Below, one piece after another: positions 15,666 to 64,000 of a stretch of DNA of 64,000 bases (the stretch's first letter is position 1; every line of letters begins with the position of its first letter). The stretch covers positions 1 to 64,000 of the forward strand of contig CAXHJY010000287.1 of assembly GCA_964016885.1 (NCBI GenBank), in the 5' to 3' direction. Both the position numbers and the translations under genes were made by a program. The notes under the pieces were generated by a model that saw only the letters and a list, made by a program, of their open reading frames with translations, was not told where the DNA came from and ran no database searches. The DNA comes from Eledone cirrhosa. Taxonomy: Eukaryota.

Positions 15666-17864
15666 TGTCTAAATTTGTTTCTAATAATTATGATAAACAA
15701 AAATGTTATCTCTATTATTTTTCTACTCATCATATTTAGAAACGTATGCATTCACACAGACACATATATGTTGATAGACTTGTAGCTATCTTGGAACATA
15801 CAACAAAGGCAGCAGCAACAAGAAAAGCGACAGTAATTTTTATGCGATGATTTTTAGGCTGAATTTATTCAAAGATCCGTTTATTCTACGTTCAAATCCG
15901 ACACTGTGCGTCTTTGCCTCTCATCATTCCACAGTCGATACATACCTTATAAACATAGTGTGACTGGCTGTCAGATTAATTATGATGTAATGTATTTGAA
16001 ATCAAATGTCACTGAATTTTACTTGCATTTTACACTGAATTCATCATATAAACTTTAAGTTTCATTCAACCCAATGTCCATTGGATCACGTGCCTGAAAT
16101 GTACCTAGCTTCACACATTGACAATTTTCTTTTTGTGGAAACCGTGAGTTGTATTGTTTAACCATCGTTGTGCGTATTTTGAGAATGGTGTAATTATTGC
16201 TTTTATTTGATCGAATATCCAGAGAATACTTTCCTGATTGATTGTTGCGTTTGCTGATTTAAACCTCGTGTTAAATGTGTTAAAGATGGTATGATATGTG
16301 GTAGTATGTACATGTGGAATTCAGGATGATGGTACGAATAAAGCTCATATATTATCATTAATCTTTAAGACGAAAATAACATTTATAATTTACAGTTCAT
16401 CAGCGACGCTTATTTCCTCTTTATCTTACTAGATAAATTATATTTATGATTTTTCGACAGTTAAACTTTAATTTATTGCCCAAGAAATGCAATCTCACCT
16501 TCGATATTTTCAGTAAACATTATTTACCATATTTTATGAGTGGCATAACATTTGAGGCAAATTTGAATCCTTCTAAATATTCGATGTAGATAAGATTTGC
16601 AATTCAACTCCCTTATTATATTTTATGTTATTTGCCAAGAGAATTATGTTGCACCTATAAATTTTGCAGGCGTTTCGATGCTACGGAAGAAGCCTCAGTG
16701 GTGGCAGAGAAGGAATGAGGAAAATGTATGGTAAAGAGATAGTTTGGAGTGTGTTGGTATTTTCTGCTAATCAGCTTCATGACCTACGTGCTGATGCCGA
16801 CTATATCTCTAACTGTAGCATCATAATCGTATCAGATGTTGCGGTGGCATATATTACTTGAAATGTCTATACCGACAGCAGCTACTCTGTTTGTGAAATG
16901 CCCTTATAAAAAATATGAATATCGTAAGTTTGATTTTACCCCAACCTCTCCCCCACTTTTAAAATATACCTAAACATTCTATGGTAACAAAACCAATAGA
17001 AAAACAGAACGCGTTTGTCCACAGTAATCAATGCATAGGGGAAAAAATGGCATAATAGCCAATGTTGTGTAGCTAATGACTGTTACATTTCATACCACAC
17101 ACTAAACACTGAAAACAGTTTATAAGAGTGAAATTCGATCCTCCCGTATTGACTTCCTGAATAAAAGTTCTTAAATGCATCAGAGCTCTGTTTTCAGGCG
17201 ACGCGATTGTTAGATTGATGAAGTAATGATTGGAAGCGCATTATGTGTTATTCTTTTTCATTGTGAGAGTTAGAAACTATAAGGTAGAAACGCTGATGTC
17301 TTGTGGAGTTCATAATGGTCCTATTTGAAAGTCAACACCATTCTCTACTGCAAATAACATGGTGAAACGTTTGTGTGACTGCGACGTTTAAAGACATCGT
17401 TTGCTTTGCACTTCTTTCGGATGTTGCTTCTAACAAAAGTTATTGTTATTTTGCCAAGGATTATGCTTAATAGAGTAGAAATACTCCAACGGGGGTTACA
17501 CGTACATCTGATAATCTATGTCTACATCATATACTGCATATACTTTTTAAAGATAGTAGAGCGTGGCTACAGATTTATGTGACATGGCTAACAAATGCCG
17601 TTGTCACGTATGACCTCTAACGTTGAATCACCTACATTCCTCAGTACATATTCATTTATTGCGCGCATACTGATTAATGATGATATGGCGAGTCCCCGCA
17701 GTCATTCTTTGGAAGCAATATTGAATTGATGCTCAAAGGAAGACTGAAACATTTCAGTAAAATATGCATCTATAAAAACGAAATCAGTCACCATTCGTAG
17801 TTGTTCAGGATAGAACAGATATGATGAATATTTACAAACTTGAGTGATCCTCATTTAACACAAT

Positions 17865-17998
17865 TCAAATCCTGCCGAGTTTTTCTTTGCTTTTCATCCT
17901 TACGGGTCGATAAAATAAAGTACCAGTTACGCACTTGGTTCGATTTAAGCGACTTTTCCCTCCCCCAAAATTGCTGGCCTTTTGCCTATTGTAGAAAT
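17865..17998 (+). mobile_element. SINE family 1
   Basis: ttcaaatcctgccgag..ttcatccttacgggtcgataaaataaagtaccagt..ttgctggcctt..gtagaaa. Confidence 0.85.
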
Positions 17999-19030
17999 TG
18001 TTATTATTGTTAATCTTATTATCAGCCACATCATCACCAGCATAGACTTCACCATCATATGGATAATTTATTCTCTCATTCCCGGTGATATTTTGTTATT
18101 GAGATTGTAAATCACACGATTTTTTATCAATATAAGCACTTTTTTTCAATTTTTACCACATAATTCTTATTCTCTTTTCTTTAATCGTTTTCACCCCATT
18201 ACACAAAACATACGCCGATAAGTTCACACACAGATATACACATACACACATATGCACGTCCGTATGTGTGTATATAATATTGGTGATGTACCGAAATATT
18301 ATATTCACAGAAACACACGCTCATACACACTAAAAAAAAAAAGTATATATATATGTACACACACACACACACACACACGTGCATACGTATATGTATGAGT
18401 AAAGGTATATGTGTGTGAGTATAGTGCATATATATATTACCATCAAGATACCATTTTTTTTTTAGTTTTCCACTTTTTCTACTTTTCTGTTTTTAACTTG
18501 TCTGACTTTTTCATATCATTAATCTTTCGAGTATTGTTTACAGTGTTGATAACATTTCATTCCTGCTGGGAGAATATTAAAATAAATATAAGAAATAAAT
18601 CTGTCTGAAGGCGTTAAAAGTTCAGCACATAAGTACGAAGGAAAGAAAACGGGCTAGTATAAATAAATTAGAGGATCCTTTCTCGCGATTTTTTTGTCTT
18701 TATCTTTTTATTATAAATTGAAAAGCTACTCATAAACATGAGAAATATAGTAGATCAGGGGGTTTATGTTTGCGATTGTTTATACAGGTTTGTGTATATG
18801 TGTATTGGCTTGCTCATATGTTTGTGAGAGTGTGTATATACTGTGTGGGCGTGTGGGTTTATTGCGTGTTCGAATATGAAGAACATTACATATATGCTGA
18901 CGCAATCATAGCTATATGGGCAATAATTTCACTTCATGAAAACTTGGTTTCCATTTCTATCGCACTTCACAATATTTTGCCAATAACATGTAAGTTCGAC
19001 AGAATCAAACTTTGCTCGGGCCCTCGAATA

Positions 19031-19086
<56 letters not shown>

Positions 19087-19748
19087 AATGTCTTTCAAAG
19101 AGCTATAGCTGGAATATTTACTGTAGGATAGTGAGTTTACGATGTGTTGCACAAGTATAAAACAAGTCAGCATCTTCGACATCGGTTTTCAGAGCTGGTC
19201 TTCCTCAAACATGTTTTAACTGCCATCGTATATTTATATATATTATTTTATTTTTTAACTGGTTTCAATCATCAGACTGAACTTATATTGTTTCACGGTC
19301 TTGAAGGGATTTACTTATTTATATCAATACTAGAGTATACTTTTTATCGAAAAATTATATTTGTATTGGGTTAGCCACCCATGAATATGCGAGACAAAGC
19401 ATAGCGGTACGTATATATATTGCATTTGTCTATATCACTTTGCGCATGTGAGTCGGGGTGGTTATGTATGTGTTTGTGAGGGTGCATGTGGAGGTGGAGT
19501 TGTATGCGTGTGACTATGCTAGAGGCCGCTTGCGTTTATAATTAACATGGAAGTAATTTAGGTCACTTATATATATATATATATGAATTTGGATTTAATG
19601 CTCTGAAATAGCGATATATATGTGAAGACAAACATAGAATATTCGAAAATATTCTGTATGTTTATAATAAACATTTTGAAGACCTAATCGCTATAGAATA
19701 GAATACGTCACGTATTACAATTTGAGATTCTCGATAAAAGCAAGGGAA

Positions 19749-19791
19749 GTAACCAACGCGTTTCATTCTTATTAGAAATCATCAGGATTAC
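19749..19791 (-). ncRNA. Type I hammerhead (family B), GUU triplet
   Basis: Reverse complement: gtaatc CTGATGA tttctaataagaat GAAA cgcg TT ggttac. Confidence 0.78.
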
Positions 19792-20060
19792 ATATCCAGT
19801 GCTTTTATCGAGAATGACACAGCTAGAGACTTATAGAATACTTAGCTGTGTACAGGAACTGGTTTGAAAGAGCGGTTGCCGGTCCGGCAGAAATTAGAAT
19901 TTGGATTTAATGCTCTGAAATAGCGATATATATGTGAAGACAAACATAGAATATTCGAAAATATTCTGTATGTTTATAATAAACATTTTGAAGACCTAAT
20001 CGCTATAGAATAGAATACGTCACGTATTACAATTTGAGATTCTCGATAAAAGCAAGGGAA

Positions 20061-20103
20061 GTAACCTACGCGTTTCATTCTTATTAGAAATCATCAGGAT
20101 TAC
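20061..20103 (-). ncRNA. Type I hammerhead (family B)
   Basis: Reverse complement: gtaatc CTGATGA tttctaataagaat GAAA cgcg TA ggttac. Confidence 0.8.
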
Positions 20104-20433
20104 ATATCCAGTGCTTTTATCGAGAATGACACAGCTAGAGACTTATAGAATACTTAGCTGTGTACAGGAACTGGTTTGAAAGAGCGGTTGCCGGTCCGGC
20201 GGAAATTAGAATTTGGATTTAATGCTCTGAAATAGCGATATATATGTGAAGACGAACAGAATATTTTCGAATATTCTATGTTTGTCTTCACATATATATC
20301 GCTATTTCAGAGCATTAAATCCAAATTCTAATTTCTGCCGGACCGGCAACCGCTCTTTCAAACCAGTTCCTGTACACAGCTAAGTTTTCTATAAGTCTCT
20401 AGCTGTGTCATTCTCGATAAAAGCACTGGATAT

Positions 20434-20476
20434 GTAATCCTGATGATTTCTAATAAGAATGAAACGCGTAGGTTAC
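20434..20476 (+). ncRNA. Type I hammerhead (family B, inverted copy)
   Basis: gtaatcCTGATGAtttctaataagaatGAAAcgcgTAggttac. Confidence 0.8.
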
Positions 20477-20598
20477 TTCCCTTGCTTTTATCGAGAATCT
20501 CAAATTGTAATACGTGACGTATTCTATTCTATAGCGATTAGGTCTTCAAAATGTTTATTATAAACATACAGAATATTTTCGAATATTCTATGTTTGTC

Positions 20599-20644
<46 letters not shown>

Positions 20645-21959: not shown

Positions 21960-22141
21960 TATCTGTTTGTCATAATTTCGAATACATTTTTTTTGACAGG
22001 CCTCCTTCCTGGTGGCAATGTTGTAAAAGAAAAGAAATTGTCATCCCTTCAATCGCAAGAATGTTTTGCAAATTTTGATGTATATATGTGTATATGCATG
22101 TAGAAATGTATGTATGTATATATGTATGTATGTATATATAT

Positions 22142-22750
22142 GTCAGGTCACCAGTTGGTGCTACTGGTAACATGTATCCCAGTACAACCTGTCTCATGGT
22201 CGGGTCGTTGGCGACTAAACTGGCAACCCCACCAAGGTTTCTTGGTGAGGAGGGTGACTTTGGACATCCTGCAGGACTAAAAACAAAACCTGTCAAAGGG
22301 CAAGGGAGCTCTTAAGACTCAATAGCCATCCAAAATCACCGGGAGAGATGACCCCTTAGCCTTTGTCAAGGCAGAATTCTAGGAGAAGGAAAACTCTGAT
22401 ATAACACCTGCAACCCTGATGGTATCCAATGATGTTGACTTGTTCTTCTTTTTGGTAAATATCATCTTGGTTAAGAGAGTGGGACTGGCTTTGTGCAGTG
22501 CCTTTGCTCACTATAAAAGCTTCACAGCACAGGCATTGCTTTATATCTGGAGATCTCTCTGCACTTGTCATCACATGGTATCATGGGCCCTGCACTATGT
22601 GTCAATAATGGTCACAAGTGTAGTCTTTGTACCAGAGTTTTCAAGTCGCTGGCTGGACTAAAAAGTCACACTCGTTCAGCGCATCGGTAGGGGTTCTCCT
22701 ACATGGATATAAAGTAGTGGCCGTACTCGAAAACGAGTTGGCAGCCACCA
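22142..22750 (+). mobile_element. ~610-bp bipartite RTE-derived non-autonomous element, copy 1 (full length)
   Basis: 5' part resembles an RTE 5' UTR (ggagaaggaaaactctga); 3' part encodes [25 protein letters not shown] (C2H2-type terminus); ends in a TA/TATG array. Confidence 0.72.
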
Positions 22751-22914
22751 TGTATATATATATATGTGTATGTATGTATATATATATATGTATATGTATG
22801 TATATATATCTATGTATATGTATGTATATATATATATGTATGTATATATGTATGTATATATGTATGTATATATGTATGTATATATGTGTATCTATATATG
22901 TATATGTATATATG

Positions 22915-22977
<63 letters not shown>

Positions 22978-23567
22978 GTATATATATATATGTATATATA
23001 TATATGTATATATATATATGTATATATATATGTATATATGTATATATATATATGTATATATATATATGTATATATATATATGTATATATATATGTGTATA
23101 TATATATGTGTATATATATATGTATATATATATGTATATATATATATGTATATATATATGTATATATATATATGTATATATATATGTATATATATATATG
23201 TATATATATATGTATATATATATATGTGTATATATATATGTATATATATATATGTATATATATATATGTATATATATATATGTATATATATATATGTATA
23301 TATATATGTATATATATAAATGTATATATATATGTATATATATATATGTATATATATATATGTATATATGTATATATATATATGTATATATATATGTATA
23401 TATATAAATGTATATATATATGTATATATATATATGTATATATATATATGTATATATATATATGTATATATATATGTATATATATATATGTATATATATA
23501 TATGTATATATATATGTATATATATATATGTATATATATATATGTATATATATATGTATATGTATAT

Positions 23568-23613
<46 letters not shown>

Positions 23614-23649
23614 GTATATATATATGTATATGTATATATATATATGTAT

Positions 23650-23699
<50 letters not shown>

Positions 23700-23706
23700 G
23701 TATATG

Positions 23707-23753
<47 letters not shown>

Positions 23754-23798
23754 GTACATATATATATATGTATATATATATATGTATATATATATATG

Positions 23799-23829
<31 letters not shown>

Positions 23830-23844
23830 GTATATATATATATG

Positions 23845-23891
<47 letters not shown>

Positions 23892-23958
23892 GTATATGTA
23901 TATATATATATGTATATATATATATATGTATATATATATATGTGTATATATATATATG

Positions 23959-23989
<31 letters not shown>

Positions 23990-24020
23990 GTATATATATA
24001 TATGTGTATATATATATATG

Positions 24021-24067
<47 letters not shown>

Positions 24068-24068
24068 G

Positions 24069-24119
<51 letters not shown>

Positions 24120-24120
24120 G

Positions 24121-24269
<149 letters not shown>

Positions 24270-24297
24270 GTATATATGTATATGTATATATATATAT

Positions 24298-24756
24298 AAC
24301 TTTGAATAACTTTGAAATGTTTTGGCCAGTATTGGCCCAGGCCATGTCTAACTTAATAGCACCACCTGGCGAAGTCTTTCAATTCAGGATTTGGGCACCA
24401 TGGCCCATTCGAGAAGAGAATTACTGTTTGCGGAGACATATCCGGATGTGGGTGGTTTGTCCGGGATTACTTCGAGGAATTTGTCCAAAGACTTCTTGAA
24501 TTTTGTGTGGTCAGTTTCTGTTTTGACGTGTCCTGGTGTGATGTTGAAGAGAGCAGGGCCGATTGAGGTGAAATAATTGTGCCGTATTGTTGTTATGAGT
24601 TGCGATTTAGATTTTTGAATGGGACGGATAGCACGGGGCCCAAGCCTTGGGTGTATCTTGAAGGCGATGCCAACATCATTTGGGCAGTGATGATGGAACA
24701 TTTTCCACATCATGCAGATAATATAACACTCACGGCGACGTTGGAGTGAGTAAAGT
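24298..24756 (-). mobile_element. CR1-group LINE 3' fragment
   Basis: Minus translation [18 protein letters not shown]...GPALFN...[16 protein letters not shown]...NSL; short repeated tail ttcaaagtta. Confidence 0.8.
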
Positions 24757-24777
24757 ATATATGTATATATATATATG

Positions 24778-24824
<47 letters not shown>

Positions 24825-24935
24825 GTATATATATATGTATATATATATGTATATATATATATATGTATATATATATATGTATATATATATATATGTATAT
24901 ATATATGTATATATATATATATGTATATATATATG

Positions 24936-24966
<31 letters not shown>

Positions 24967-25009
24967 GTATATATATATATGTATATATATATATATGTAT
25001 ATATATATG

Positions 25010-25042
<33 letters not shown>

Positions 25043-25055
25043 GTATATATATATG

Positions 25056-25086
<31 letters not shown>

Positions 25087-25365
25087 GTATATATATATGT
25101 ATATATATATGTATATATATATGTATATATATGTATATATATATATATGTATATAAATATGTATATATATATATATGTATATATATATGTATATATATAT
25201 ATGTATATATATATATATGTATATATATATATGTATATATTTATATAAATATGTATATATATATATATGTATATATATATATGTATATATTTATATATGT
25301 ATATATATATATATGTATATATATATGTATGTATATGTATATATATATATATGTATATATATATG

Positions 25366-25412
<47 letters not shown>

Positions 25413-25539
25413 GTATATATATATGTATATATATATATGTATATATATATATGTATATATATATATGTATGTATATGTATATATGTATATATATATATAT
25501 GTATATATGTATATATATGTATATATATGTATATATATG

Positions 25540-25602
<63 letters not shown>

Positions 25603-25671
25603 GTATATAATTATATATGTATATATATATATGTATATATATATATGTATATATATGTATATATATATATG

Positions 25672-25734
<63 letters not shown>

Positions 25735-25789
25735 GTATATATATGTATATGTATATGTATATGTATATATATATGTATATATATATATG

Positions 25790-25851
<62 letters not shown>

Positions 25852-25869
25852 TATATATATATATATGTG

Positions 25870-25929
<60 letters not shown>

Positions 25930-25947
25930 TATATATATATATATGTG

Positions 25948-25978
<31 letters not shown>

Positions 25979-25989
25979 GTATATATATG

Positions 25990-26035
<46 letters not shown>

Positions 26036-26189
26036 TATATATATATATATGTGTATATATATATATGTGTATATATATATATATTTATATATATATATGT
26101 ATATATATATATATGTATATATATATGTGTATATATATATATGTGTATATATATATATGTGTATATATATATATGTATATATATATATT

Positions 26190-26250
<61 letters not shown>

Positions 26251-26335
26251 GTATATATATGTATATATATGTATATATATATATATGTATATATATGTAT
26301 ATGTATATATATATATATGTATATATATGTATATG

Positions 26336-26382
<47 letters not shown>

Positions 26383-26539
26383 GTATATATATATGTATAT
26401 ATATATGTATATATATATATATGTATATATATATGTGTATATATATATATGTATGTATATATATATGTGTATATATATATATGTATATATATATGTGTAT
26501 ATATATATATGTATATATATATATATGTATATATATATG

Positions 26540-26572
<33 letters not shown>

Positions 26573-26585
26573 GTATATATATATG

Positions 26586-26622
<37 letters not shown>

Positions 26623-26857
26623 GTATATATATATGTGTATATATATATATGTATATATATATGTGTATATATATATATGTATATATATATATATGTATAT
26701 ATATATGTATATATGTATATATATATATGTATATATGTATATATATATATGTATGTATATATATATATATATGTATATATATGTATATGTATATATGTAT
26801 ATATATGTATATATATGTATATATATGTATATATATGTATATATATGTATATATGTG

Positions 26858-26888
<31 letters not shown>

Positions 26889-27223
26889 GTATATATGTGT
26901 ATATATATATATATGTGTATATATATATATATATGTATATATATGTATATATATATATATGTATATATGTGTATATATATATATATATGTATATATGTGT
27001 ATATATATATATGTATATATATATATGTATATATGTGTATATATATATATGTATATATATATATGTATATATGTGTATATATATATATGTATATATATGT
27101 GTATATATATATATGTATATATATGTATATATGTGTATATATATATGTATATATGTGTATATATATATGTATATATATATATATGTATATGTATATATAT
27201 AAGTATATATGTATATATATATG

Positions 27224-27256
<33 letters not shown>

Positions 27257-27279
27257 GTATGTATGTATGTATATATATG

Positions 27280-27342
<63 letters not shown>

Positions 27343-27362
27343 GTATATATATATATGTATGT

Positions 27363-27495
<133 letters not shown>

Positions 27496-27499
27496 TATG

Positions 27500-27530
<31 letters not shown>

Positions 27531-27573
27531 GTATATGTATGTATGTATATGTATGTATATGTATGTATGTATG

Positions 27574-27635
<62 letters not shown>

Positions 27636-27639
27636 TATG

Positions 27640-27686
<47 letters not shown>

Positions 27687-27717
27687 GTATATGTATATAT
27701 ATGTATGTATGTATATG

Positions 27718-27790
<73 letters not shown>

Positions 27791-27791
27791 G

Positions 27792-27824
<33 letters not shown>

Positions 27825-28086
27825 GTATATGTATGTATGTATATATATGTATGTATGTATATGTATGTATATATATGTATGTATGTATATGTATGTATAT
27901 ATATATATATGTATGTATATGTATGTATGTATATATATGTATGTATGTATATGTGTATGTATGTATATATGTATGTATATATGTATGTATATATGTTTGT
28001 ATATATGTATATATATATATGTATATATATATATGTATATATATATGTATGTATATATGGATGTATGTATATATATGTATATATGG

Positions 28087-28172
<86 letters not shown>

Positions 28173-28193
28173 GTATATATATATATATGTATG

Positions 28194-28340
<147 letters not shown>

Positions 28341-28775
28341 GTATATATATGTATGTATGTATATATATGTATGTATGTATATATATATATGTATGTATAT
28401 ATATATATGTATGTATATATATATATGTATGTATGTATATATATGTATGTATATGTATGTATATATATGTATGTATATGTATGTATATATATGTATGTAT
28501 ATGTATATATATATGTATATGTATATATATATATATGTATGTATATGTATATATATATGTATATATATGTATATATATATGTATGTATATGTATATGTAT
28601 ATATATATGTATGTATATGTATATGTATATGTATATATATGTATATATATATATATGTATGTATATGTATATGTATATGTATATATATATGTATGTATAT
28701 GTATATATATATATATGTATGTATATGTATATATATATGTATATATATATGTATGTGTATATATATATATGTATG

Positions 28776-28809
<34 letters not shown>

Positions 28810-28829
28810 TGTATGTATGTATGTATATA

Positions 28830-29237
28830 CGGAAGAGATGACCCCTTAGCCTTTGTCAAGGCAGAATTCTAGGAGAAGGAAAACTCTGATATAACACCTG
28901 CAGCCCTGATGGTATCCAATGATGTTGACTCGTTCTTCTTTTTGGTAAATATCATCTTGGTTAAGAGAGTGGGATTGGCTTTGTGCAGTGCCTTTGCTCA
29001 CTATAAAAGCTTCACGGCACAGGCATTGCTTTATATCTGGAGATCTCTCTGCACTTGTCGTCACCTGGTACCATGGGCCCTGCACTGTGTCAATAATTGT
29101 CATAAGTGTAGTGTTTGTACCAGAGTTTTCAAGTCGCTGGCTGGACTTAAAATCACACTCGTTCAGCGCATCGGTAGGGGTTCTCCTACATGGATATAAA
29201 GTAGTGTCCGTACTCGAAAACGAGTTGGCAGCCACCA
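28830..29237 (+). mobile_element. RTE-derived element, copy 2 (5'-truncated)
   Basis: Matches 22340-22750. Confidence 0.8.
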
Positions 29238-29513
29238 TGTATATATATATATATGTATGTATGTATATATATATGTATGTATATATGTATGTATGTATAT
29301 ATGTATGTATGTATATATGTATGTATGTATATGTATGTATATGTATGTATATATGTATGTATATATATATATATGTATGTATATATATATGTATGTATAT
29401 ATATATGTATGTATATATATATGTATGTATATATATATCTATGTATATATATATATGTATGTATATATATATGTATGTATATATATATATGTATGTATAT
29501 ATATATATGTATC

Positions 29514-29552
<39 letters not shown>

Positions 29553-29557
29553 GCATG

Positions 29558-29654
<97 letters not shown>

Positions 29655-29659
29655 GCATG

Positions 29660-29696
<37 letters not shown>

Positions 29697-29719
29697 CTAT
29701 GTATATATATGTATGCATG

Positions 29720-29750
<31 letters not shown>

Positions 29751-29931
29751 GTATATATGTATGTATGTATATATATGTATGTATGTATATATGTATGTAT
29801 GTATATATGTATGTATGTATGTATATATATATGTATGTATATATGTATGTATATGTATGTATATGTATATATGTATATATGTATATATGTATGTATATGT
29901 ATATATATGTATATGTATATATATATATATG

Positions 29932-29967
<36 letters not shown>

Positions 29968-30013
29968 TGTATGTATGTATGTATGTATGTATGTATGTAT
30001 GTATATATGTATG

Positions 30014-30045
<32 letters not shown>

Positions 30046-30058
30046 TGTATATATATAT

Positions 30059-30667
30059 GTCAGGTCACCAGTTGGTGCTACTGGTAACATGTATTCGAGT
30101 ACAACCTGTCCCATGGTCGGGTCGTTGGTGACTAAACTGGCAACCCCACCAAGGTTTCTTGGTGAGGAGGGTGACTTTGGACATCCTGCAGGACTAAAAA
30201 CAAAACCTGTCAAAAGGCAAAGGAGCTCTTAAGAGTCAATGGCCATCCAAAATCACCGGGAGAGATGACCCCTTAGCCTTTGTCAAGGCAGAATTCTAGG
30301 AGAAGGAAAACTCTGATATAACACCTGCAACCCTGATGGTATCCAATGATGTTGACTTGTTCTTCTTTTTGGTAAATATCATCTTGGTTAAGAGAGTGGG
30401 ACTGGCTTTGTGCAGTGCCTTTGCTCACTATAAAAGCTTCACGGCACAGGCATTGCTTTATATCTGGAGATCTCTCTGCATTTGTCGTCACATGGTACCA
30501 TGGGCCCAGCACTATGTGTCAATAATTGTCACAAGTGTAGTGTTTGTACCAGAGCTTTCAAGTCGCTGGCTGGACTAAAAAGTCACACTCGTTCAGCGCA
30601 TCAGTAGGGGTTCTCCTACATGGATATAAAGTAGTGGCCGTACTCGAAAACGAGTTGGCAGCCACCA
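30059..30667 (+). mobile_element. RTE-derived element, copy 3 (full length)
   Basis: Matches 22142-22750. Confidence 0.8.
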
Positions 30668-30715
30668 TGTATATATATATGTATGTATATATATATATAT
30701 GTATGTATGTATATA

Positions 30716-30748
<33 letters not shown>

Positions 30749-30845
30749 ATATGTATGTGTATGTATGTATGTATATATGTATGTATATATATATATATGT
30801 ATGTATGTATGTATGTATATATATATGTATGTGTATGTATGTATG

Positions 30846-30878
<33 letters not shown>

Positions 30879-31057
30879 GTATGTATATATATGTATGTAT
30901 GTATGTATGTATATACATACATATACATACATACATATATATACATACATACATATACATACATATATATATATATACATACATATACATACATACATAC
31001 ATATACATACATACATATACATATATATACATACATACATATATACATACATGTATG

Positions 31058-31091
<34 letters not shown>

Positions 31092-31337
31092 TGTATATAT
31101 GTATGTATGTATGTATATATGTATGTATATATATATATGTATGTATGTATATATGTATGTATATATGTATGTATGTATATATGTATGTATGTATATATAT
31201 ATGTATGTATATATATATGTATGTATATATATATGTATGTATATATATATGTATGTATATATATATGTATGTATATATATATGTATGTATATATATATGT
31301 ATGTATATATATATGTATGTATATATATATGTATGTA

Positions 31338-31373
<36 letters not shown>

Positions 31374-31489
31374 TATATGTATGTATGTATATATATATGT
31401 ATGTATGTATATATATATGTATGTATATGTATGTATATGTATATGTATGTATGTATATATATATATATGTATGTATATATATATGTATG

Positions 31490-31520
<31 letters not shown>

Positions 31521-31768
31521 GTATATATATATATGTATGTATATATATATGTATGTATATATATATGTATGTATATATATATGTATGTATATATGTATGT
31601 ATGTATGTATATATATGTATGTATGTATATATATGTATGTATATGTATGTATGTATGTATGTATATATATATGTATGTATGTATATATATGTATGTATAT
31701 GTATGTATGTATGTATATATATATGTATGTATATGTATGTATGTATGTATATATATATGTATGTATGT

Positions 31769-32133
31769 AAGGAAAACTCTGATATAACACCTGCAACCCT
31801 GATGGTATCCAATGATGTTGACTTGTTCTTCTTTTTGGTAAATATCATCTTGGTTAAGAGAGTGGGACTGGCTTTGTGCAGTGCCTTTGCTCACTATAAA
31901 AGCTTCACGGCACAGGCATTGCTTTATATCTGGAGATCTCTCTGCACTTGTCGTCACATGGTACCATGGGCCCAGCACTATGTGTCAGTAATTGTCACAA
32001 GTGTAGTGTTTGTACCAGAGTTTTCAAGTCGCTGGCTGGACTAAAAAGTCACACTCGTTCAGCGCATCGGTAGGGGTTCTCCTACATGGATATAAAGTAG
32101 TGGCCGTACTCGAAAACGAGTTGGCAGCCACCA
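31769..32133 (+). mobile_element. RTE-derived element, copy 4 (5'-truncated)
   Basis: Starts at aaggaaaactctg; same 3' end as the other copies. Confidence 0.8.
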
Positions 32134-32265
32134 TATATATATATATATATATGTACATTATGAAGAGAGAAGAAACATTTAGATATAATTAGTAATAAAA
32201 TGTATCATACCTAAACTGTTCCTAAATTCCTCGACTATATGTATATATATGTATGTATGTATGTA

Positions 32266-32310
<45 letters not shown>

Positions 32311-32363
32311 GTATATATGTATATATATATATGTATGTGTGTATATGTGTATGTATGTATATG

Positions 32364-32414
<51 letters not shown>

Positions 32415-32421
32415 GTATATG

Positions 32422-32467
<46 letters not shown>

Positions 32468-33112
32468 TGTGTATATATGTATGTGTATATGTGTGTATGT
32501 GTGTATGTATGTGTATGTATATGTATATATATGTATGTACGTATATATGTGTATGTGTGTGTGTATGTATATATATGTGTATATATATGTGTATATATGT
32601 ATATATGTGTGTATATATGTATGTATGTGTATATATATATATGTATATGTATGTGTATATATATGTATGTATGTATATATGTATGTATGTATATATGTAT
32701 ATATATATATATGTATATATGTATATATATATATATGTATGTATTTATATATGTATATATATATATGTGTATATATATATATATGTATGTGTGTATATGT
32801 ATGTATGTATATATGTATGTATATATATATGTGTGTATATGTGTGTGTATGTATGTGTATATGTATGTATATATATATGTATGTATATATATATGGATGT
32901 ATATATATATGTATATGTATATATATATGTATGTATATGTATATATATATATATATGTGTGTATGTATATATGTATGTATATATATATGTGTGTATATAT
33001 ATATGTGTGTATATATATATGTATGTATATATATGTATATATATATATACATATATGTATATATATATACTTATATATATGCATATATGTAGATATATAT
33101 ACATATATTTAT

Positions 33113-33750
33113 GTCAGGTCACCAGTTGGTGCTACTGGTAACATGTATCCCAGTACAACCTGTCTCATGGTCGGGTCGTTGGCGACTAAACTGGCAACCC
33201 CACCAAGGTTTCTTGGTGAGGAGGGTGACTTTGGACATCCTGCAGGACTAAAAACAAAACCTGTCAAAGGGCAAAGGAGCTCTTAAGAGTCAATGGCCAT
33301 CCAAAATCACCGGGAGAGATGACCCCTTTAGCCTTAGTCAAGGCAGAATTCTAGGAGAAGGAAAACTCTGATATAACACCTGCAACCCTGATGGTATCCA
33401 ATGATGTTGACTTGTTCTTCTTTTTGGTAAATAGCATCTTGGTTAAGAGAGTGGGACTGGCTTTGTGCAGTGCCTTTGCTCACTATAAAAGCTTCACGGC
33501 ACAGGCATTGCTTTATATCTGGAGATCTCTCTGCACTTGTCCTCACATGGGCCCAGCACTATGTGTCAATAATTGTCCTACCATGGGCCTAGCACTATGT
33601 GTCAATGATTGTCACAGGTGTAGTGTTTGTACCAGAGGTTTCAAGTCGCTGGCTGGACTAAAAAGTCACACTCGTTCAGCGCTTCGGTAGGGGTTATCAT
33701 ACATGGATGTAAAGTAGTAGCCGTACTCGAAAACGAGTTGGCAGCCACCA
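33113..33750 (+). mobile_element. RTE-derived element, copy 5 (full length, internal ~35-bp duplication)
   Basis: catgggcc.agcactatgtgtcaat.attgtc occurs twice at 33547-33613. Confidence 0.8.
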
Positions 33751-33776
33751 TGTATGTATGTATGTATGTATGTATG

Positions 33777-33810
<34 letters not shown>

Positions 33811-33838
33811 TGTATGTATGTATATATATATGTATGTA

Positions 33839-33871
<33 letters not shown>

Positions 33872-33936
33872 ATATATATGTATGTATATATATATGTATG
33901 TATATATATATGTATGTATGTATATATATATGTATG

Positions 33937-33983
<47 letters not shown>

Positions 33984-34902
33984 GTATATATATATGTATG
34001 TATATATATATGTATGTATATATATATGTATGTATATATATATGTATGTATATATATATGTATGTATATATATATGTATGTATATATATATATGTATGTA
34101 TGTATATATATGTATGTATGTATATATATATATGTATGTATGTATATATATATATGTATGTATGTATATATATATATAAGTATGTATATATATATGTATA
34201 TATGTATATATATATATGTATATATGTATATGTATGTATATATGTATATGTATATGTATGTATATGTATATGTATATGTATGTATATGTATGTATATATA
34301 TATGTATGTATATATATATATATGTATGTATATGTATATATATGTATATATATATATATGTATGTATATGTATATATATGTATATGTATATATATATATG
34401 TATATGTATATATATATGTATATGTATATGTATATATATATGTATATGTATACATACATATACATACATATATATGTATATATATATGTATATATATATG
34501 TGTATATATATATGTATATATATATGTATGTATATATATATATGTATGTATATGTATATGTATGTATATATATATATATGTATATATATATGTATATATA
34601 TGTATATATATGTATATATGTATATATATGTATATATATGTATATATATATATGTATATATATGTATATATATATATGTATATATATGTATATATATATA
34701 TGTATATATATGTATATATATGTATATATGTATATGTATATATGTATATATATATATGTATATATATATATGTATATATATATATGTATATATATATATG
34801 TATATATATTTGTATATATATATATGTATATATATATATGTATATATATTTGTATATATATATATGTATATATATGTATATATATTTGTATATATATATA
34901 TG

Positions 34903-35089
<187 letters not shown>

Positions 35090-35140
35090 GTATATATATA
35101 TGTATATATATATGTATGTATATATATGTATATATATATG

Positions 35141-35173
<33 letters not shown>

Positions 35174-35861
35174 GTATATATATATGTATATATATATGTA
35201 TATATATATGTATATATATATATGTATATATGTATGTATATGTATGTGTGTATGTATGTGTATGTATGTGTATGTATGTATGTATATATATATGATTTCA
35301 GAAAGAGAGAGATATATAAGGAACACCGAATGAAAGAAGAGTTGAGCTGGCTGGCTAAGACTTTGTACATACATATACGTGTGAGAGAGCATAGAATGGG
35401 AAGACATTTCATAATTTGCAGGAGAAATAACACGTGTTAGTAGAAAGACAGTAATTGAAGTACTAAACTGAATGGAAGACATGTATAGTGGATTTGTGTA
35501 AGAAGTACGGCTACATTGAAACCGATAATCTGATATATAATAGAAATTCTGTAGGAAGCAATATCACTTGGGACTGTGGAATAATTGAGATGTACAAATG
35601 GATGTCGTTGTATACACAATGGTATTTATAGAAATCCCAAGTGGAAATGAGATTAAGCCTCATGTAATTGACCAAAGGTACAGGATTTATGGCTTCATCT
35701 TTTATTAGGCTGGGCACACATACTGTCACGCCATTCAGATTTTATATCTGTAGTTAGATAATTCTCAAAGTATCATCTGTGAAAATAAAAATAAAATGAA
35801 AATAAATGAAAAATCTGTTCAATTTTTCCCATGAATAACAAAAGACGGATTACTATAATGA

Positions 35862-36066
35862 TTTCTACTATAGGCACAAGACCAGTAATTTGGTGAAAGT
35901 CGATTATATCGACCCAAGTACGTTACTGGTGCTTTATTTTATCGACTGCATAAGGATGAAAGGCAAAGTTAACCTCGGCAGGATTATAACACATACCGTA
36001 AAGGGACTTAACTCTATGCTGCATAGCATGGTGTCAGACTCTCTACCGATACTGCCAATCCACCGA
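35862..36066 (-). mobile_element. SINE family 1; a further 3' fragment lies at 36140-36202
   Basis: Full body ending ctctaccgatactgccaat.caccg. Confidence 0.85.
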
Positions 36067-37685
36067 CCTACGACGGATTACTATAATAGTAATAGTTTTG
36101 TCTCTTAAAGTAACAATAATCCAATACATATTCAAATAATTGTTTCTACTTTAGGCACAAGGCCAGCAATTTTCCAGTACATTACTGGTACTTTATTTTA
36201 TCATATTCAAAAATGTCTTGAAATTGGTACTTTTATATATTTTTCCAAGGTTCCAGCAATGTATTGCTCATCATTCTTGCCTTGTTTACCTCATTCAAAA
36301 CATACACTCAACTTTACTTAGGAAATTTTCTTTTTTAGTTTTCCTCTGTTTTTTTTTCATTCGCAAAGAATTTATATCTACTAATATATTTGTGTTTTCA
36401 TTGATAATTTCGTTTTTATTGGACCTACATCAGAATATTGCAGACATCTGATAGTCATTTATCATAACTATATTGTAGGAGTGCTAATAGAGCTATGGTA
36501 TCTTGCAGGCGTTAAATTCAGACCTTTCTATTAACAATTGCAGTCAGATACCGTGGATATTTACTCTATCGACAAAGTTTCTATGGAAAGATATCCCATC
36601 GCTCTACTTTGATGAAATCTAGTTGTGCGCGTATTCAAACCAGTGAGCCCTCATCCATGAACTGGCGTAGCAAACGATGGCCTGAATCAAGTCCGTGCAT
36701 TTACCGCACATGGAAGTCTCTGCCTAGGCCAACATAATACCATAAGTGGAGATAGCAGACTCACAGAATATCCATGTAACAACGACATATGCAACGAATT
36801 ATGTTATAGACAACCAGCTACGAAGTTCTTTTTCGTATCAGTGCAAATGATAAAGTGGAGAATAACATGGTCAACAGTACAAAAAAGGAGATTTATTTAC
36901 AGTCTAACAATTGTTTCACGGATAGTTGTCTAAAAATTGCTAAACACTGTAAATAGTGCCACTCAATTTAAAATACATGTTGGCCCCTTCATATCTTCAG
37001 AAACTGTCAAAAAATATAAATATATGTGTAGCCGGCATATTTACAAATTCAAATTACAACATCAAAAATAATATTAATAATAAAATATAGAGAGAAAAAA
37101 AGGAAGGGGGATAGATATAGTAAAGAGAGAAAAGAAGGGAAGAAGAAAGAAGGGAAAAGAAAAAGAGATAGAGAAAGAAGAAATGATTACAGCTAAAAGT
37201 AACATGTATAGCATATGAGAGAAAAACACAAGTAGAAATAGGATAGAGAGAAGAAGGTAGATGGGCAAATAGATGAATAAACGTTAATGCATGAATAAAT
37301 GTAAGTCAAAATAAAGATAGATATATAGAAATATATAAGGAAATAAATGAAAAAATATATACAAAATTGATAGATAAATAAATAATAAATAAATAAATAA
37401 ATTACATCTAATGTAATATAAAATGGTATAATATGTGAAAAGTGAAGATGAAAATAAATAAATATATATGTAAAAGACGTAAAAAAGTACGAAGAATATT
37501 TAAACATAAGATTATTAAGAATAGTTTTTGCTAATTCTTAAATATATGGATAGATATTAAGTTGAAAATATGAGAATGTTGAATACAATTATGTATACAA
37601 TATATAACAGTTTTACAAATAAGCTTTGACGTACCCTATAAAATGCAACCACTGTTTTTGGAAGTCATCCGGATAGTCCGTTGTA

Positions 37686-40650: not shown

Positions 40651-41273
40651 TGTCAGTGTTTAACAAACGAGCAACGGTGGTTGCTAGACACTACGGCTTA
40701 ATACGGGATGTTTGTTTACAAACACACCGAGCATTATAATAAATGTTCGGTGAATCCATACGTGCATATATATATGTGTGCATGTATGTATATATATATA
40801 TATATACATACTACTGTACGTCGGTATACATATATGTATGTACGTGTACATACTTATATGTAAGTAACAGCCGTACTAAGAGTGGGAAATGAAATATCGT
40901 TTCATTTTTTCCGTTTATCGTTTTCGGTGCACCCGGCCGATTAACCCACTCGATATGCAAATTGGGCTACTCAGCCGTTAATATGCATAAGGTAAGTATA
41001 TACGTTCAACAATCTGGCAGGAAGGTATACGTTGCTGACGATAGCTAACAAGCTTGAAACTAGTACAGCGTTCCTTTGTCAGTGTTGAACAAACGAGCAA
41101 CGGTGGTTGCTAGACACTACGGCTTAATACGGGATGTTTGTTTACAAACACACCGAGCATTATAATAAATGTTCGGTGAATCCATACGTGCATATATATA
41201 TATGTGTGCATGTATGTATATATATACATACTACTGTACGTCGGTATACATATATGTATGTACGTGTACATAC
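40651..41273 (+). mobile_element. 426-bp HHR-bearing unit in partial tandem (family F)
   Basis: ~200-bp direct repeats at 40651 and 41077, with the HHR immediately before the second. Confidence 0.75.
41030..41070 (+). ncRNA. Minimal type I hammerhead (family F)
   Basis: cgttg CTGACGA t-agct aaca agct-t GAAA ctag TA cagcg. Confidence 0.82.
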
Positions 41274-41311
<38 letters not shown>

Positions 41312-41623: not shown

Positions 41624-42037
41624 GGAGGAAGTTATATCCAACTAGCCCACTCGGGTCCTTCTCTACGCAGACAGCTATCCAAAAGACACTCCACCAGACA
41701 TGACAACCGCTGCAGGCTAGCCAACTGCCCCATCAACGACACAGACTTATACCACCAGGCTTACGTCGTATACAGACTAGAGTGCGACAAATGCAGCAAC
41801 TTCTACGTAGGTAGCACGACCAGACCACTCCACATAAGAATAAAAGAGCACCTCAATACTAACGCTTCCTCATTTAAGAAACACATAGTTAATTGCAAAA
41901 ACACCGACAAAACCATAACAGTTAGGATAGAAACTAAGGAAAGAAATCTCGGCAATCTTAGAATTAAGGAAATTATAGACAAAACACAACCACCAATCAA
42001 TAATAGACTAGAACTCAACACCCAATTTATAACTTGA
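41624..42037 (+). pseudogene. Penelope-like GIY-YIG endonuclease C-terminus (5'-truncated element extending to ~42592)
   Basis: VVYRLECDKCSNFYVGSTTRPLHIRIKEHL..HIVNC..LRIKE..QPPIN; no RT domain or start codon. Confidence 0.9.
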
Positions 42038-48190: not shown

Positions 48191-48270
48191 GCTATCTGAT
48201 GAACTTTACTTTTCCATTAGAAATTCACTGAATTTCTAATCTTTTGTAAAGCGAAACCGACGGTAATATC
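48191..48270 (+). ncRNA. Type I hammerhead motif (family J)
   Basis: tat CTGATGA a-ctttac..attagaaattc act gaatttctaat..gtaaag-c GAAA ccgacgg TA ata. Confidence 0.72.
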
Positions 48271-57639: not shown

Positions 57640-58250
57640 ATAGTATTTTTGTCTGCAATCATTCGTTGTACTGTCTATTTGCATATATCCTTCTGTCGAT
57701 TTGGACAGAACAGTTCCATAGGACTGAGATATGCCATTTTTCAGGTAATACAGGTGGTTTGAGTTCCCAACAGCTTTTATAGTGTGGCGGGTCCAGGTTC
57801 TTCCAAATTGCACAGTGGATATTCTGTGCAGCTCTAGCATGCCTGTTGTGAAATAATGAGGGCGAAAGAATGCTACAGATTGAGACAATTTGATCAATGT
57901 ATTCAGGTTATTATTTACATATTCCAAGGGCGGTGAATTGGCAGTATCGGTAGAGGGTTGGATGCCATGCTTTCCAGCATAGTTACGTCCCTTTACGTTC
58001 TGAGTTCAAATCCCGCCGAGGTTAACTTTGCCTTTCATCCTTACGGGGGTCGATAAAATAAATTACCAGTAATATACTGCGTAATTGCTGGCCTTGTGAC
58101 AAAAGTAGAAACAATTATTTACATATTCCATAACTCGGGCTATTGTCGTTCTTTAAGACGTTAGCATGATAGTTTCTGCTAGGAAGGCATTGATCTATGG
58201 CTGATATGATAAACCATTTTGTTTCCGATTATAAGACACTGATGGTTATT
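57640..58250 (-). mobile_element. R4/Dong-like (RLE-type) non-LTR retrotransposon fragment, interrupted by a SINE
   Basis: With the SINE removed: SETKWFIISAIDQCLPSRNYHANVLKN..ICK**PEYIDQIVSICSILSPSLFHNRHARAAQNIH..VLWNCSVQIDRRIYANR. Confidence 0.8.
57927..58113 (+). mobile_element. Full-length tRNA-derived SINE family 1 with 17-bp TSD
   Basis: A-box-like tggcagtatcgg and B-box gagttcaaatcc; attatttacatattcca at 57910-57926 and 58114-58130. Confidence 0.92.
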
Positions 58251-62114: not shown

Positions 62115-62322
62115 AATTCTAACTAGGAGACCGAATGATTCTCCGCTTCAGAGTTAAGAATAAAGTAAATAAAATAGAATACATAGGTAATAGAAATTAA
62201 ATAAATACATACACGCATGCAAATACGTACATACACAAGCATACGCGAAAACACTTGCCATAGGTATACACAACCACGCACATAAATATGTGTGTTTGTG
62301 TGTGCTTGTATACAAATAAATA

Positions 62323-63289
62323 ATTAAACTAGACATGAAAAATGCGCAAGCTCAAAAGTGCCACAGAATGTTATAATAAACCTTCAAAAGTGTGGGACTA
62401 GAGTTGTTGCTAAAAAATATTGTAATCATTATATATCGTACATTCTGTGGCATCCTTTATAAAAATAGCTTAAACCAACGAAGCCTTTATTTTTACGCTA
62501 TTTCACTTAGTTAATTCTTAGAGTGTAACATATAAAAATATGATTTACAACTATAAAATAAATTAATTAATATAATAACAGAGCTGCGGAGCTGAAATTT
62601 AGGAAATAATGGAGTATCGGATCCTGAGTTGGAGCCAGTCAATTTTTGACCGACTCCGCAGCCCTGTATAATACATTTCATATTAAAGTTATTAATAAAC
62701 CTATTTTACACTTCATGCAAATTACCACGAGATATTGATATTAGATATAAGATACAGCGCAATATCTACAGCTGTAAAAGTACGAAAGCGAAGTAATAAT
62801 AAGTGGCTTAAGGTAATTCCAATATGAAAGTTTGTAGTGATAAAAATTTGATAATGCAATACGATTGTTAATATTATAGTTCTATGAAAATGTAACAATA
62901 GATAACTAAATTATTTTACTATTAGTATATTTAAGAAATTATCATTATAGATTTGATCGTTCATATAAGCATCATATTAAGTTTCAACACAATTATTTTG
63001 TTACTATGAGTATATGATAATAATATTACGTAATTATTTATAGCTGTTATTACATTAAACATAGATGTATTTATTTTTATATGTTACACTCTAAGAATTA
63101 ACTAAGTGAAATAGCGTAAAAATAAAGGCTTCGTTGGTTTAAGCTATTTTTATAAAGGATGCCACAGAATGTACGATATATAATGATTACAATATTTTTT
63201 AGCAACAACTCTAGTCCCACACTTTTGAAGGTTTATTATAACATTCTGTGGCACTTTTGAGCTTGCGCATTTTTCATGTCTAGTTTAAT
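62323..63289. mobile_element. Fold-back/MITE-like element with ~218-bp inverted repeats
   Basis: 62323-62540 is the reverse complement of 63072-63289, apparently without mismatch. Confidence 0.85.
62579..62666. mobile_element. 88-bp hAT-like MITE nested in the above
   Basis: Ends cagagctgcggag / ctccgcagccctg; 8-bp flanks tataataa / tataatac. Confidence 0.65.
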
Positions 63290-63844
63290 ATTTTTTTAAG
63301 GCAACGCTTGTAATAACTCTAGTTAAACAGGATATATATTAATAATAAATTATCGTTGTAATGTAATTAGATTATGTAATTGTTATTATAAATTATCTTA
63401 TAAATATTAGTGTAAGATGTATAAAAATATTTTCAGACTTTTAATATAAACAACTACAAAAAACAATCAATATTAAATCAATATATTATACATAATAGAA
63501 AACATAAAATATACAATACAAAAACAAAATATTTACATACAATTGCAACAATTATCAGTGTATATACATTTTCTTTATATTCCCTGAGCAAATTAATAAG
63601 ATTTGTTTTTATTGTACATAATTTGATGACTTGTTGGAGTGTATTAAAAGATAGCAACAATTTGTGATTAAATTGTTATCTTAAGCAACTCACTTTTTAA
63701 TAGTTGTTGGCTGAGCGAAATTGTAAAAGCCTATGAGCAAATATAAAAAAAAATACACAAACAACATTTCCTTGTGTTATTACAACATTAGATAAAATAA
63801 TTGAGCAATGTCGTTATATTTTGCTCTTATTGCACATTAATAGT

Positions 63845-64000
63845 GTTTCTATTTTTCGGCACAAATCCATTACGGCAGTCCATTACTGGTACTTTATTTT
63901 ATCGAATTAGTAAGTATGAAAGTCGAAGTTAACCTCGGCAGGATTTGAACTTAGAATGCAAAGGACCATAACAATACTGCAAAGCATGGTGTCTGACGCT
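63845..64000 (-). mobile_element. SINE family 1, runs off the window end
   Basis: Same body and ggatttgaac B-box. Confidence 0.85.

Follow-up and report, generated by a model that had tools for sequence, protein, structure and literature searches.

The array at positions 19585-20602 raises the question of what kind of element its repeated unit represents, and how tandem and inverted copies of it came to lie side by side. The answer bears on two wider issues, namely which enzyme moves animal retrozymes and whether their arrays arise at insertion or grow later, both of which have so far been argued from co-occurrence and phylogeny. In the following, the window means the whole stretch of 64,000 nucleotides from Eledone cirrhosa that was analysed.

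Structure of the array and its sister locus

The locus consists of tandem 312-bp units and a head-to-head inverted arm, embedded in (TA)n. This architecture had been proposed in an earlier note made from the letters alone, and it is confirmed, with 2.16 and 1.11 units lying between (TA)8 and (TA)20. The following parts were read in the sequence:

19569-19584, no strand assigned: left target (TA)8
19585-20258, minus strand: long arm of 2.16 tandem 312-bp units, 674 nt, unit phase 312 to 49
19585-19622, minus strand: 38-nt tail of the Penelope-like element (PLE) type, ending with the 8-nt AU tract 19614-19621 (tail as defined in passages of PMC8557442 and PMC11167929)
19727-19815, minus strand: hammerhead domain of copy 1, with a 16-bp closing stem (19727-19742 with 19800-19815)
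19749-19791, minus strand: type I hammerhead of copy 1, with a private GUU cleavage triplet (19755)
20061-20103, minus strand: type I hammerhead of copy 2 (GUA)
20254-20277, no strand assigned: head-to-head junction with a 3-nt overlap (20256-20258), a mismatch at 20254 and an 8-bp hairpin (20258-20277)
20256-20602, plus strand: inverted arm of 1.11 units, 347 nt, phase 72 to 38
20434-20476, plus strand: type I hammerhead of the inverted arm, predicted cleavage after 20470
20603-20642, no strand assigned: right target (TA)20

In the long arm the ribozyme sense is the minus strand, so that the RNA 3' side points toward the left flank, and in the inverted arm the RNA 3' side points toward the right flank, with the outer end at phase 38 adjoining the AU tract. 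The 38-nt tail is present at the outer end of the long arm and missing at that of the inverted arm. The left flank also holds a short dispersed repeat (19229-19288) with many loose ends in two public sequencing runs (X1 and X7, see below).

The 310/312-bp unit occurs at only two places in the window, the second being:

4432-5445, no strand assigned: sister insertion of a 310-bp unit, 94.9% identical to the unit at 19585-20602

The sister contains 2.37 units (4432-5167), four templated bases and an inverted 0.88 unit (5172-5445), and its junction is a perfect 25-nt palindrome (5166-5190) that includes the four templated bases and a 2-nt microhomology. Its tail is 33-41 nt. The coordinates of the arms (4432-5167/5172-5445 against 19585-20258/20256-20602) bear out the statement that the inversion breakpoint differs between the two loci. 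Retrozyme insertions that have a target-site duplication show one of more than 4 bp; at both loci such a duplication is unreadable, the flanking (TA)n masking any copy.

Comparison of the copies shows no differences in 1010 nt within the sister and four single-copy differences in 1021 nt within 19585-20602, against 14 substitutions and a 2-nt indel per unit between the loci (within versus between, Fisher p 7e-10), just as the earlier note had it: near-identical copies inside a locus and divergence between loci. The base at the cleavage site of copy 1 carries a private change (19755, GUA to GUU) that is nearly absent from four public runs, and the inverted arm 20256-20602 has its own private change at 20386. 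The flanks of the two loci are unrelated (GC 0.00/0.00 against 0.36/0.33) and not common to both, which upholds the view that these are independent insertions and no DNA-level duplication. The notion of one template variant per array also stood up, each locus type matching a separate variant set in the public runs, and the sequences support a derivation of the two loci from distinct template variants.

Insertion ends and junctions

Both loci have the ribozyme on the minus strand in the long arm and on the plus strand in the inverted arm, so the RNA 3' sides point outward and the junction is head to head. The start of the long arm lies 5 nt ahead of phase 1 in the sister and 1 nt ahead of it in 19585-20602, and the inverted arms end at phases 29-37 and 38, respectively, beside the 8-nt AU tract. 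It is clear from these positions that the outer ends are fixed at two sites 33-41 nt apart that are common to both loci and that the inner breakpoints differ; only one end of each insertion carries the stretch between the two outer-end sites (33-41 and 38 nt). At the inner side each inverted arm terminates with the 3' end of a hairpin in the unit, at phase 302 in the sister and phase 72 in 19585-20602, and the junction palindromes have 12-bp and 8-bp arms, respectively. Since all four arms cross the cleavage site, the left arms twice, and none ends there, the cleaved linear monomer was, to judge from these arms, not the template. The window is rich in TA microsatellites, and TA-like sequence lies on both sides of 13% of the points in it, so the location of both loci in (TA)n has a p of about 0.02.

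According to the part of PMC8557442 consulted, PLE insertions combine a partial tandem with an inverted copy truncated at its 5' end; one end bears a 30-40-bp tail, and the target is biased toward (TA)n. Palindromes at head-to-head PLE junctions are described in passages of PMC3846280. Both insertions analyzed here carry these published marks, i.e. partial tandem, inverted truncated copy, tail, junction palindrome and (TA)n target. According to sections of PMC11167929, purified PLE protein cuts and extends both strands of AT-rich DNA, two internal start sites delimit the tail, and ribozyme cleavage is not required.

The hammerhead and the fold of the unit RNA

Each unit contains CUGAUGA and GAAAC cores, a helix I of 6 bp and a helix II of 4 bp with a tetraloop, and a 2-bp helix III enclosing a palindromic 2-nt loop, and a further 16-bp stem closes the domain. 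The hammerhead core is intact in all six copies of the two loci, one of them with GUU, and the domain with its closing stem has a z of about -7 (measured on the equivalent stretch in the inverted arm). The 6-nt palindrome of helix III self-pairs at -7.5 kcal/mol, and the palindromic helix III pairs best between two copies. This layout is that of the canonical metazoan type I hammerhead, for which the portion of PMC4209133 consulted states a requirement for a dimer. Predicted free folding of the motif from 19585-20602 shifts helix I onto the core, and the 2-bp helix III together with the U-U at the base of helix II suggests that a monomer would have weak activity. Eight of nine Xenopus retrozyme dimers are reported, in parts of preprint 10.64898/2026.07.22.740005, to show no cleavage in vitro.

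At the gathering score Rfam gave no match in the 64-kb window, and the only hammerhead matches were weak ones to Hammerhead_HH9 (20 bits against a gathering score of 52). Rfam matches to miRNA families at the junction were rejected, as they reflect the long inverted repeat.

The unit has a GC content of 34-35%, and its predicted fold is branched, with 60-62% of the bases paired and z values of -4.2 to -5.7 against 100 dinucleotide shuffles; the antisense strand folds too. No case for coding or rolling-circle translation was found in the unit, where the longest stop-free frame is 59 codons, and neither a Pfam match in the three unit frames scanned, nor an RT or nuclease ORF inside the element, nor a tRNA module in the unit was detected. 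A viroid-like replicating circle was also considered and rejected: the other strand has no hammerhead core, the Rfam list for the locus holds no other ribozyme family, and the fold is not rod-like.

Base changes in the ribozyme

The earlier note had described two stem I changes (G-U to A-U and U-A to U-G) that keep the pairing, a change in loop II and a U-U at the base of stem II. All are present in the sequence as described. The U-U had been taken as a derived change, and here the direction is probably the reverse: because U-U makes up 87% of the summed contig depth in X1 and over 99% in X7, and is found in an unrelated 426-bp family (see below) as well, it is probably the normal state and the A-U of the sister the variant. 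The two helix I states of 19585-20602 are a minority in X1 (14% and 8%).

From the stem changes it had further been concluded that the RNA structure is under selection, a conclusion that fails at these two loci, where the pair-keeping changes are all one-sided. Both changes in stem I are transitions on one side of the pair that pass through G-U, no change is compensatory, and 4 of the 14 between-locus substitutions fall inside the 43-nt ribozyme. Contigs of the four public runs show 27 variable unit positions, one of which (19755) is private to copy 1. Not one of the other 26 falls in the 17 core positions (1.6 expected) or in the core plus helix II strands, and three fall in helix I (1.2 expected), all three pairing with the window partner. 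None of the selection tests was significant (stem I p 0.98, core p 0.17, closing stem p 0.16, core plus stem II p 0.07).

Real covariation appears only between families, the partner being:

41029-41071, plus strand: hammerhead of the unrelated 426-bp family, helix lengths as in the unit

When the 41029 family is compared with the unit, 7 of 13 pairs change on both sides across four aligned motifs (0 of 500 shuffles; 0-1 in slid registers), a count in which all seven two-sided changes come from one outside sequence and the structure was assigned by us from the motif. BLAST found no similarity of the unit to this family, or to the element at 11096-12124 described below, at E under 0.1. The 426-bp family (40651-41282) comprises about 1.5 copies with a 94% identical overlap, has a CUGACGA core and no inverted arm, and ends in (TA)n.

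A hint of selection may lie in X7, where a change at 19736 (15%) breaks the pair with the window partner and the loose-end consensus from the opposite stem strand (31 contigs, agreement 0.70) shows a change matching it. Judged by eye, this consensus is complementary to the loose end at 19741 (27 contigs), the match including two wobbles that can pair on the ribozyme strand alone. Both sets are unphased, and template switching could equally give this pattern.

The unit in public sequencing runs

Of 27 sampled words, 37-81% recur in each of twenty runs, which fall under 18 organism codes, are of unrecorded or guessed kind and include none listed as RNA; the evidence used here rests on four of them (X1, X4, X7 and X13). 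Among the best 20 of 192 loose ends in X1, a set that leaves out 19559-19598 so that the second start site is uncounted, at least nine contigs have (TA)n running straight into the unit at 19614, where the inverted arms have their start site. Five contigs show a variant of the tandem junction. The AU-tract start thus recurs outside the window. One X1 contig spans the left junction of 19585-20602 with no differences.

The summed depth in X1 is 1.2e5-6.7e5 for the unit and 2.85 for the flank, and in X7 it is 3e4-1.2e6 for the unit, values that are not copy numbers and are read as "very abundant" only. X7 contains an abundant and diverged family without the flank of 19585-20602. Single contigs of this run have skips of 62-94 nt that remove part or all of the hammerhead (joints 19694-19757, 19700-19764 and 19743-19838), and one contig has an opposite-strand joint at the 19658-19674 hairpin, starting at 19667.

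In both X4 and X13 the unit appears as a single closed contig of unit length, free of flanking sequence: in X4 it has 342 letters (312+30), depth 18.5 and the helix I states of 19585-20602, and in X13 it has 340 letters (310+30), depth 34 and the ribozyme of the sister. The two contigs come from two other organism codes, and their variants are a minority in the host-like run. One may ask whether the unit also lives as a free circle outside the host lineage, passing between species and written into genomes by a rolling-circle PLE RT. We regard this as very improbable, and carry-over between libraries or diet as a far more likely explanation of the two contigs; if it were true, the free unit-length circle would be a retrozyme circle that moves between species and is written into genomes by a PLE RT.

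PLE traces and other repeats in the window

A Pfam scan covering 134 of the 174 complexity-filtered frames of at least 50 codons gave one match to a PLE-type domain:

41624-42037, plus strand: C-terminal GIY-YIG fragment of a PLE-type ORF, a separate insertion

At 23.6 bits the match lies above the Pfam cut-off of 22.6 (1 of 134 frames), and the fragment shows 65% identity over 133 residues to a longer protein, the upstream part of which looks like what we take to be a PLE RT thumb. The one relative with a name comes from Octopus bimaculoides (64% identity), which makes a cephalopod host likely. The stretch appears to be the end of a 5'-truncated PLE-type ORF, with a GIY-YIG domain and a Cys-rich linker, lying directly after TA/TG repeats. 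By its sequence, this remnant indicates that the PLE enzyme class has been present in the genome, not that it moved the unit. It shows no link to the unit, no autonomous PLE sharing the unit was found among 20 of the 192 loose ends, and tblastn with three GIY-YIG relatives (queries without the RT core) found no further PLE piece in the window.

Several other repeats were observed. An older head-to-head inverted pair at 11096-12124 (arms 11096-11447 and 11771-12124, 89.5% identical, 324-nt spacer) has (TA)n at its right end and a long-helix-II hammerhead core in each arm, facing outward, and looks like inverted PLE pseudo-LTRs. Hammerhead-like cores with an AT-palindromic helix III occur in short inserts inside TA tracts at 3191 (plus), 6723 (minus) and 37692 (plus), of which those at 6723 and 37692 look related; core matches at 48196 and 43759 may be chance. 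Inverted repeats of 227 bp at 62314-62540 and 63072-63297 (99% identical, 530 bp apart) contain no hammerhead core and are MITE- or foldback-like. A dispersed SINE-like family with 77-95% identity is found at 8084-8218, 12562-12750, 15129-15331, 17864-18004, 35917-36202, 57927-58126 and 63844-64000, the copy at 15129-15330 being a 202-bp palindrome. The region 22078-35293 consists of large segmental repeats (1.2-2.6 kb, 83-89%) of microsatellite and unique sequence, and 22517-22687 gives a weak C2H2 finger match below the cut-off.

How the arrays may have been written

Our best explanation, to which we assign a probability of roughly 0.75, is that the unit is a non-autonomous element of the animal non-LTR retrozyme kind that would have been integrated in trans by a PLE protein. 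The arms, outer ends, tail and palindromes are read in the sequence of two fully read loci, with the inversion junctions taken from the assembly; for the enzyme, the order of steps and the form of the template we infer the following. The GIY-YIG nuclease of a PLE would cut both strands of (TA)n, and from each cut 3' end a cDNA would be started, at one or the other of two sites inside the RNA. The RT would run past the cleavage site, for up to 2.4 units, on a more-than-unit RNA that may be a circle or, slightly less probably, an uncleaved multimer or chain of jumps. The two cDNAs would have the same sense and so could not anneal directly. Instead, the shorter one may fold back at a hairpin, self-extend by a few bases and make a complementary end, which would anneal to the other cDNA, in register at 19585-20602 and by the 2-nt microhomology in the sister, and yield the palindromic head-to-head junction. 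The whole array would be written at insertion, in which case the copies inside one locus would be identical.

The earlier note had suggested rolling-circle-like reverse transcription from repeated copying of one template. The part of this idea that stands is RT past more than one unit, read from the repeated crossing of the cleavage site; the circular template does not follow, since the same DNA would result from template jumps or from an uncleaved multimer, and we put the odds that a PLE enzyme copied a circle in rolling-circle fashion within the host at somewhat under even.

With the same element and enzyme, the inverted arm might instead come from self-priming of the antisense transcript at a palindrome, as in a PLE model set out in the consulted part of PMC3846280. 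Both junctions do lie at unit hairpins, as does the start of the single opposite-strand joint in X7, and of the two strands the antisense one has the more stable fold. We nevertheless consider this route unlikely. In both loci and in the nine X1 contigs the inverted arm has its outer end at a constant position beside the AU tract, as would be expected from a second priming site; both target strands undergo extension in vitro (parts of PMC11167929); and copying by fold-back alone could not turn a 347-nt arm into one of 674 nt.

Local amplification at the DNA level, by unequal crossover or fold-back after insertion of a monomer or a solo PLE terminal repeat, has been suggested for vertebrate retrozymes in portions of preprint 10.64898/2026.07.22.740005. 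Duplication would also give near-identical copies, and the hairpins would favour DNA fold-back, but the partial arrays (2.16 and 2.37 units) end at arbitrary phases, the two unrelated loci share outer ends and not inner breakpoints, and the inverted arm ends in a different flank with no mirror of the left one. Such an origin therefore appears improbable to us.

Twin priming of the L1 type produces a head-to-head geometry with the 3' sides outward, the geometry seen at both loci, and could in principle have inverted a SINE-like LINE passenger. This is hardly credible here, as the element has no poly(A) or simple-repeat tail of its own, the arms have a full unit of sequence in common, and a 33-41-nt tail is described, in the excerpts consulted, as particular to PLEs. 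That the inverted arm is a long-read fold-back or assembly artefact, of the chimeric sort that palindromes cause at junctions known from the assembly only, is just as hard to credit, as the arm does not mirror the left side but leads into a different flank, has the private change at 20386, and ends in a junction type that recurs in independent contigs.

Comparison with known systems

The earlier note had named neither the retrozyme family nor the PLE signature, both of which were found here in the sequence. Animal non-LTR retrozymes, as described in parts of PMC7229834 and 10.64898/2026.07.22.740005, likewise have a unit of 150-450 bp, a GC content under 50%, non-coding tandem copies in short arrays, one type I hammerhead per unit, self-paired RNA and PLEs in the same genome, and by these features of its sequence the element is an animal non-LTR retrozyme. 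For the retrozymes of coral, mussel and axolotl the sources, as far as consulted, show circular RNA and cleavage, whereas 19585-20602 is known from sequence alone. Their main texts, in the portions consulted, do not use "inverted" for insertions (one reference title only), and the preprint has neither "tail" nor "junction", in contrast to the inverted arm and tail present here. In the open literature consulted in part we found no published account of tail, inverted arm and junction palindrome on retrozyme insertions, nor of an octopus hammerhead repeat; subscription journals and the supplements of PMC7229834 (including figure S9) and of the preprint may differ.

Newt and axolotl satellite-2 hammerhead repeats (about 330-350 bp), compared by partial description only, are alike in unit size, in a short helix III that works as a dimer and in very high abundance. 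Pattern scans found 25 metagenome and 10 viral loci that share the ribozyme core pattern, none of the 35 resembling the unit at E 0.1. Seven of the metagenome contigs (L001, L003, L005, L013, L014, L015 and L021) have the same core and a palindromic helix III centring inverted repeats of 270-390 nt that are unlike the unit, and are possibly rod-like retrozyme or MITE-like families of other hosts.

PLEs with a C-terminal GIY-YIG (Penelope/Poseidon, Neptune, Nematis, Hydra) and pseudo-LTRs share with the two insertions the partial tandem, the inverted 5'-truncated copy, the 30-40-bp tail, the junction palindrome, the (TA)n target and a hammerhead that lies 5' of the start sites on the RNA. They differ in having an RT/nuclease ORF, which is absent here, the unit as a whole being the size of a terminal repeat. 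Their minimal hammerheads have a longer helix II, whereas the unit has the canonical 4-bp helix II (sections of PMC4209133).

A dependence of retrozymes on PLEs has already been proposed (parts of 10.64898/2026.07.22.740005), PLEs have been called a "strong candidate" for moving them (passages of PMC7229834), and more-than-unit copying from circles is in print (excerpts of PMC4209133); the same preprint, in the portions consulted, leans to local amplification. Collectively, the unit is real and belongs to a known kind of element, not a new class, and its anatomy is useful for the question of mechanism. Very young and abundant copies with PLE insertion marks make direct tests possible, both of the moving enzyme and of whether arrays arise at insertion, and the anatomy, as read in the sequence, points to Penelope enzymes as the mover.
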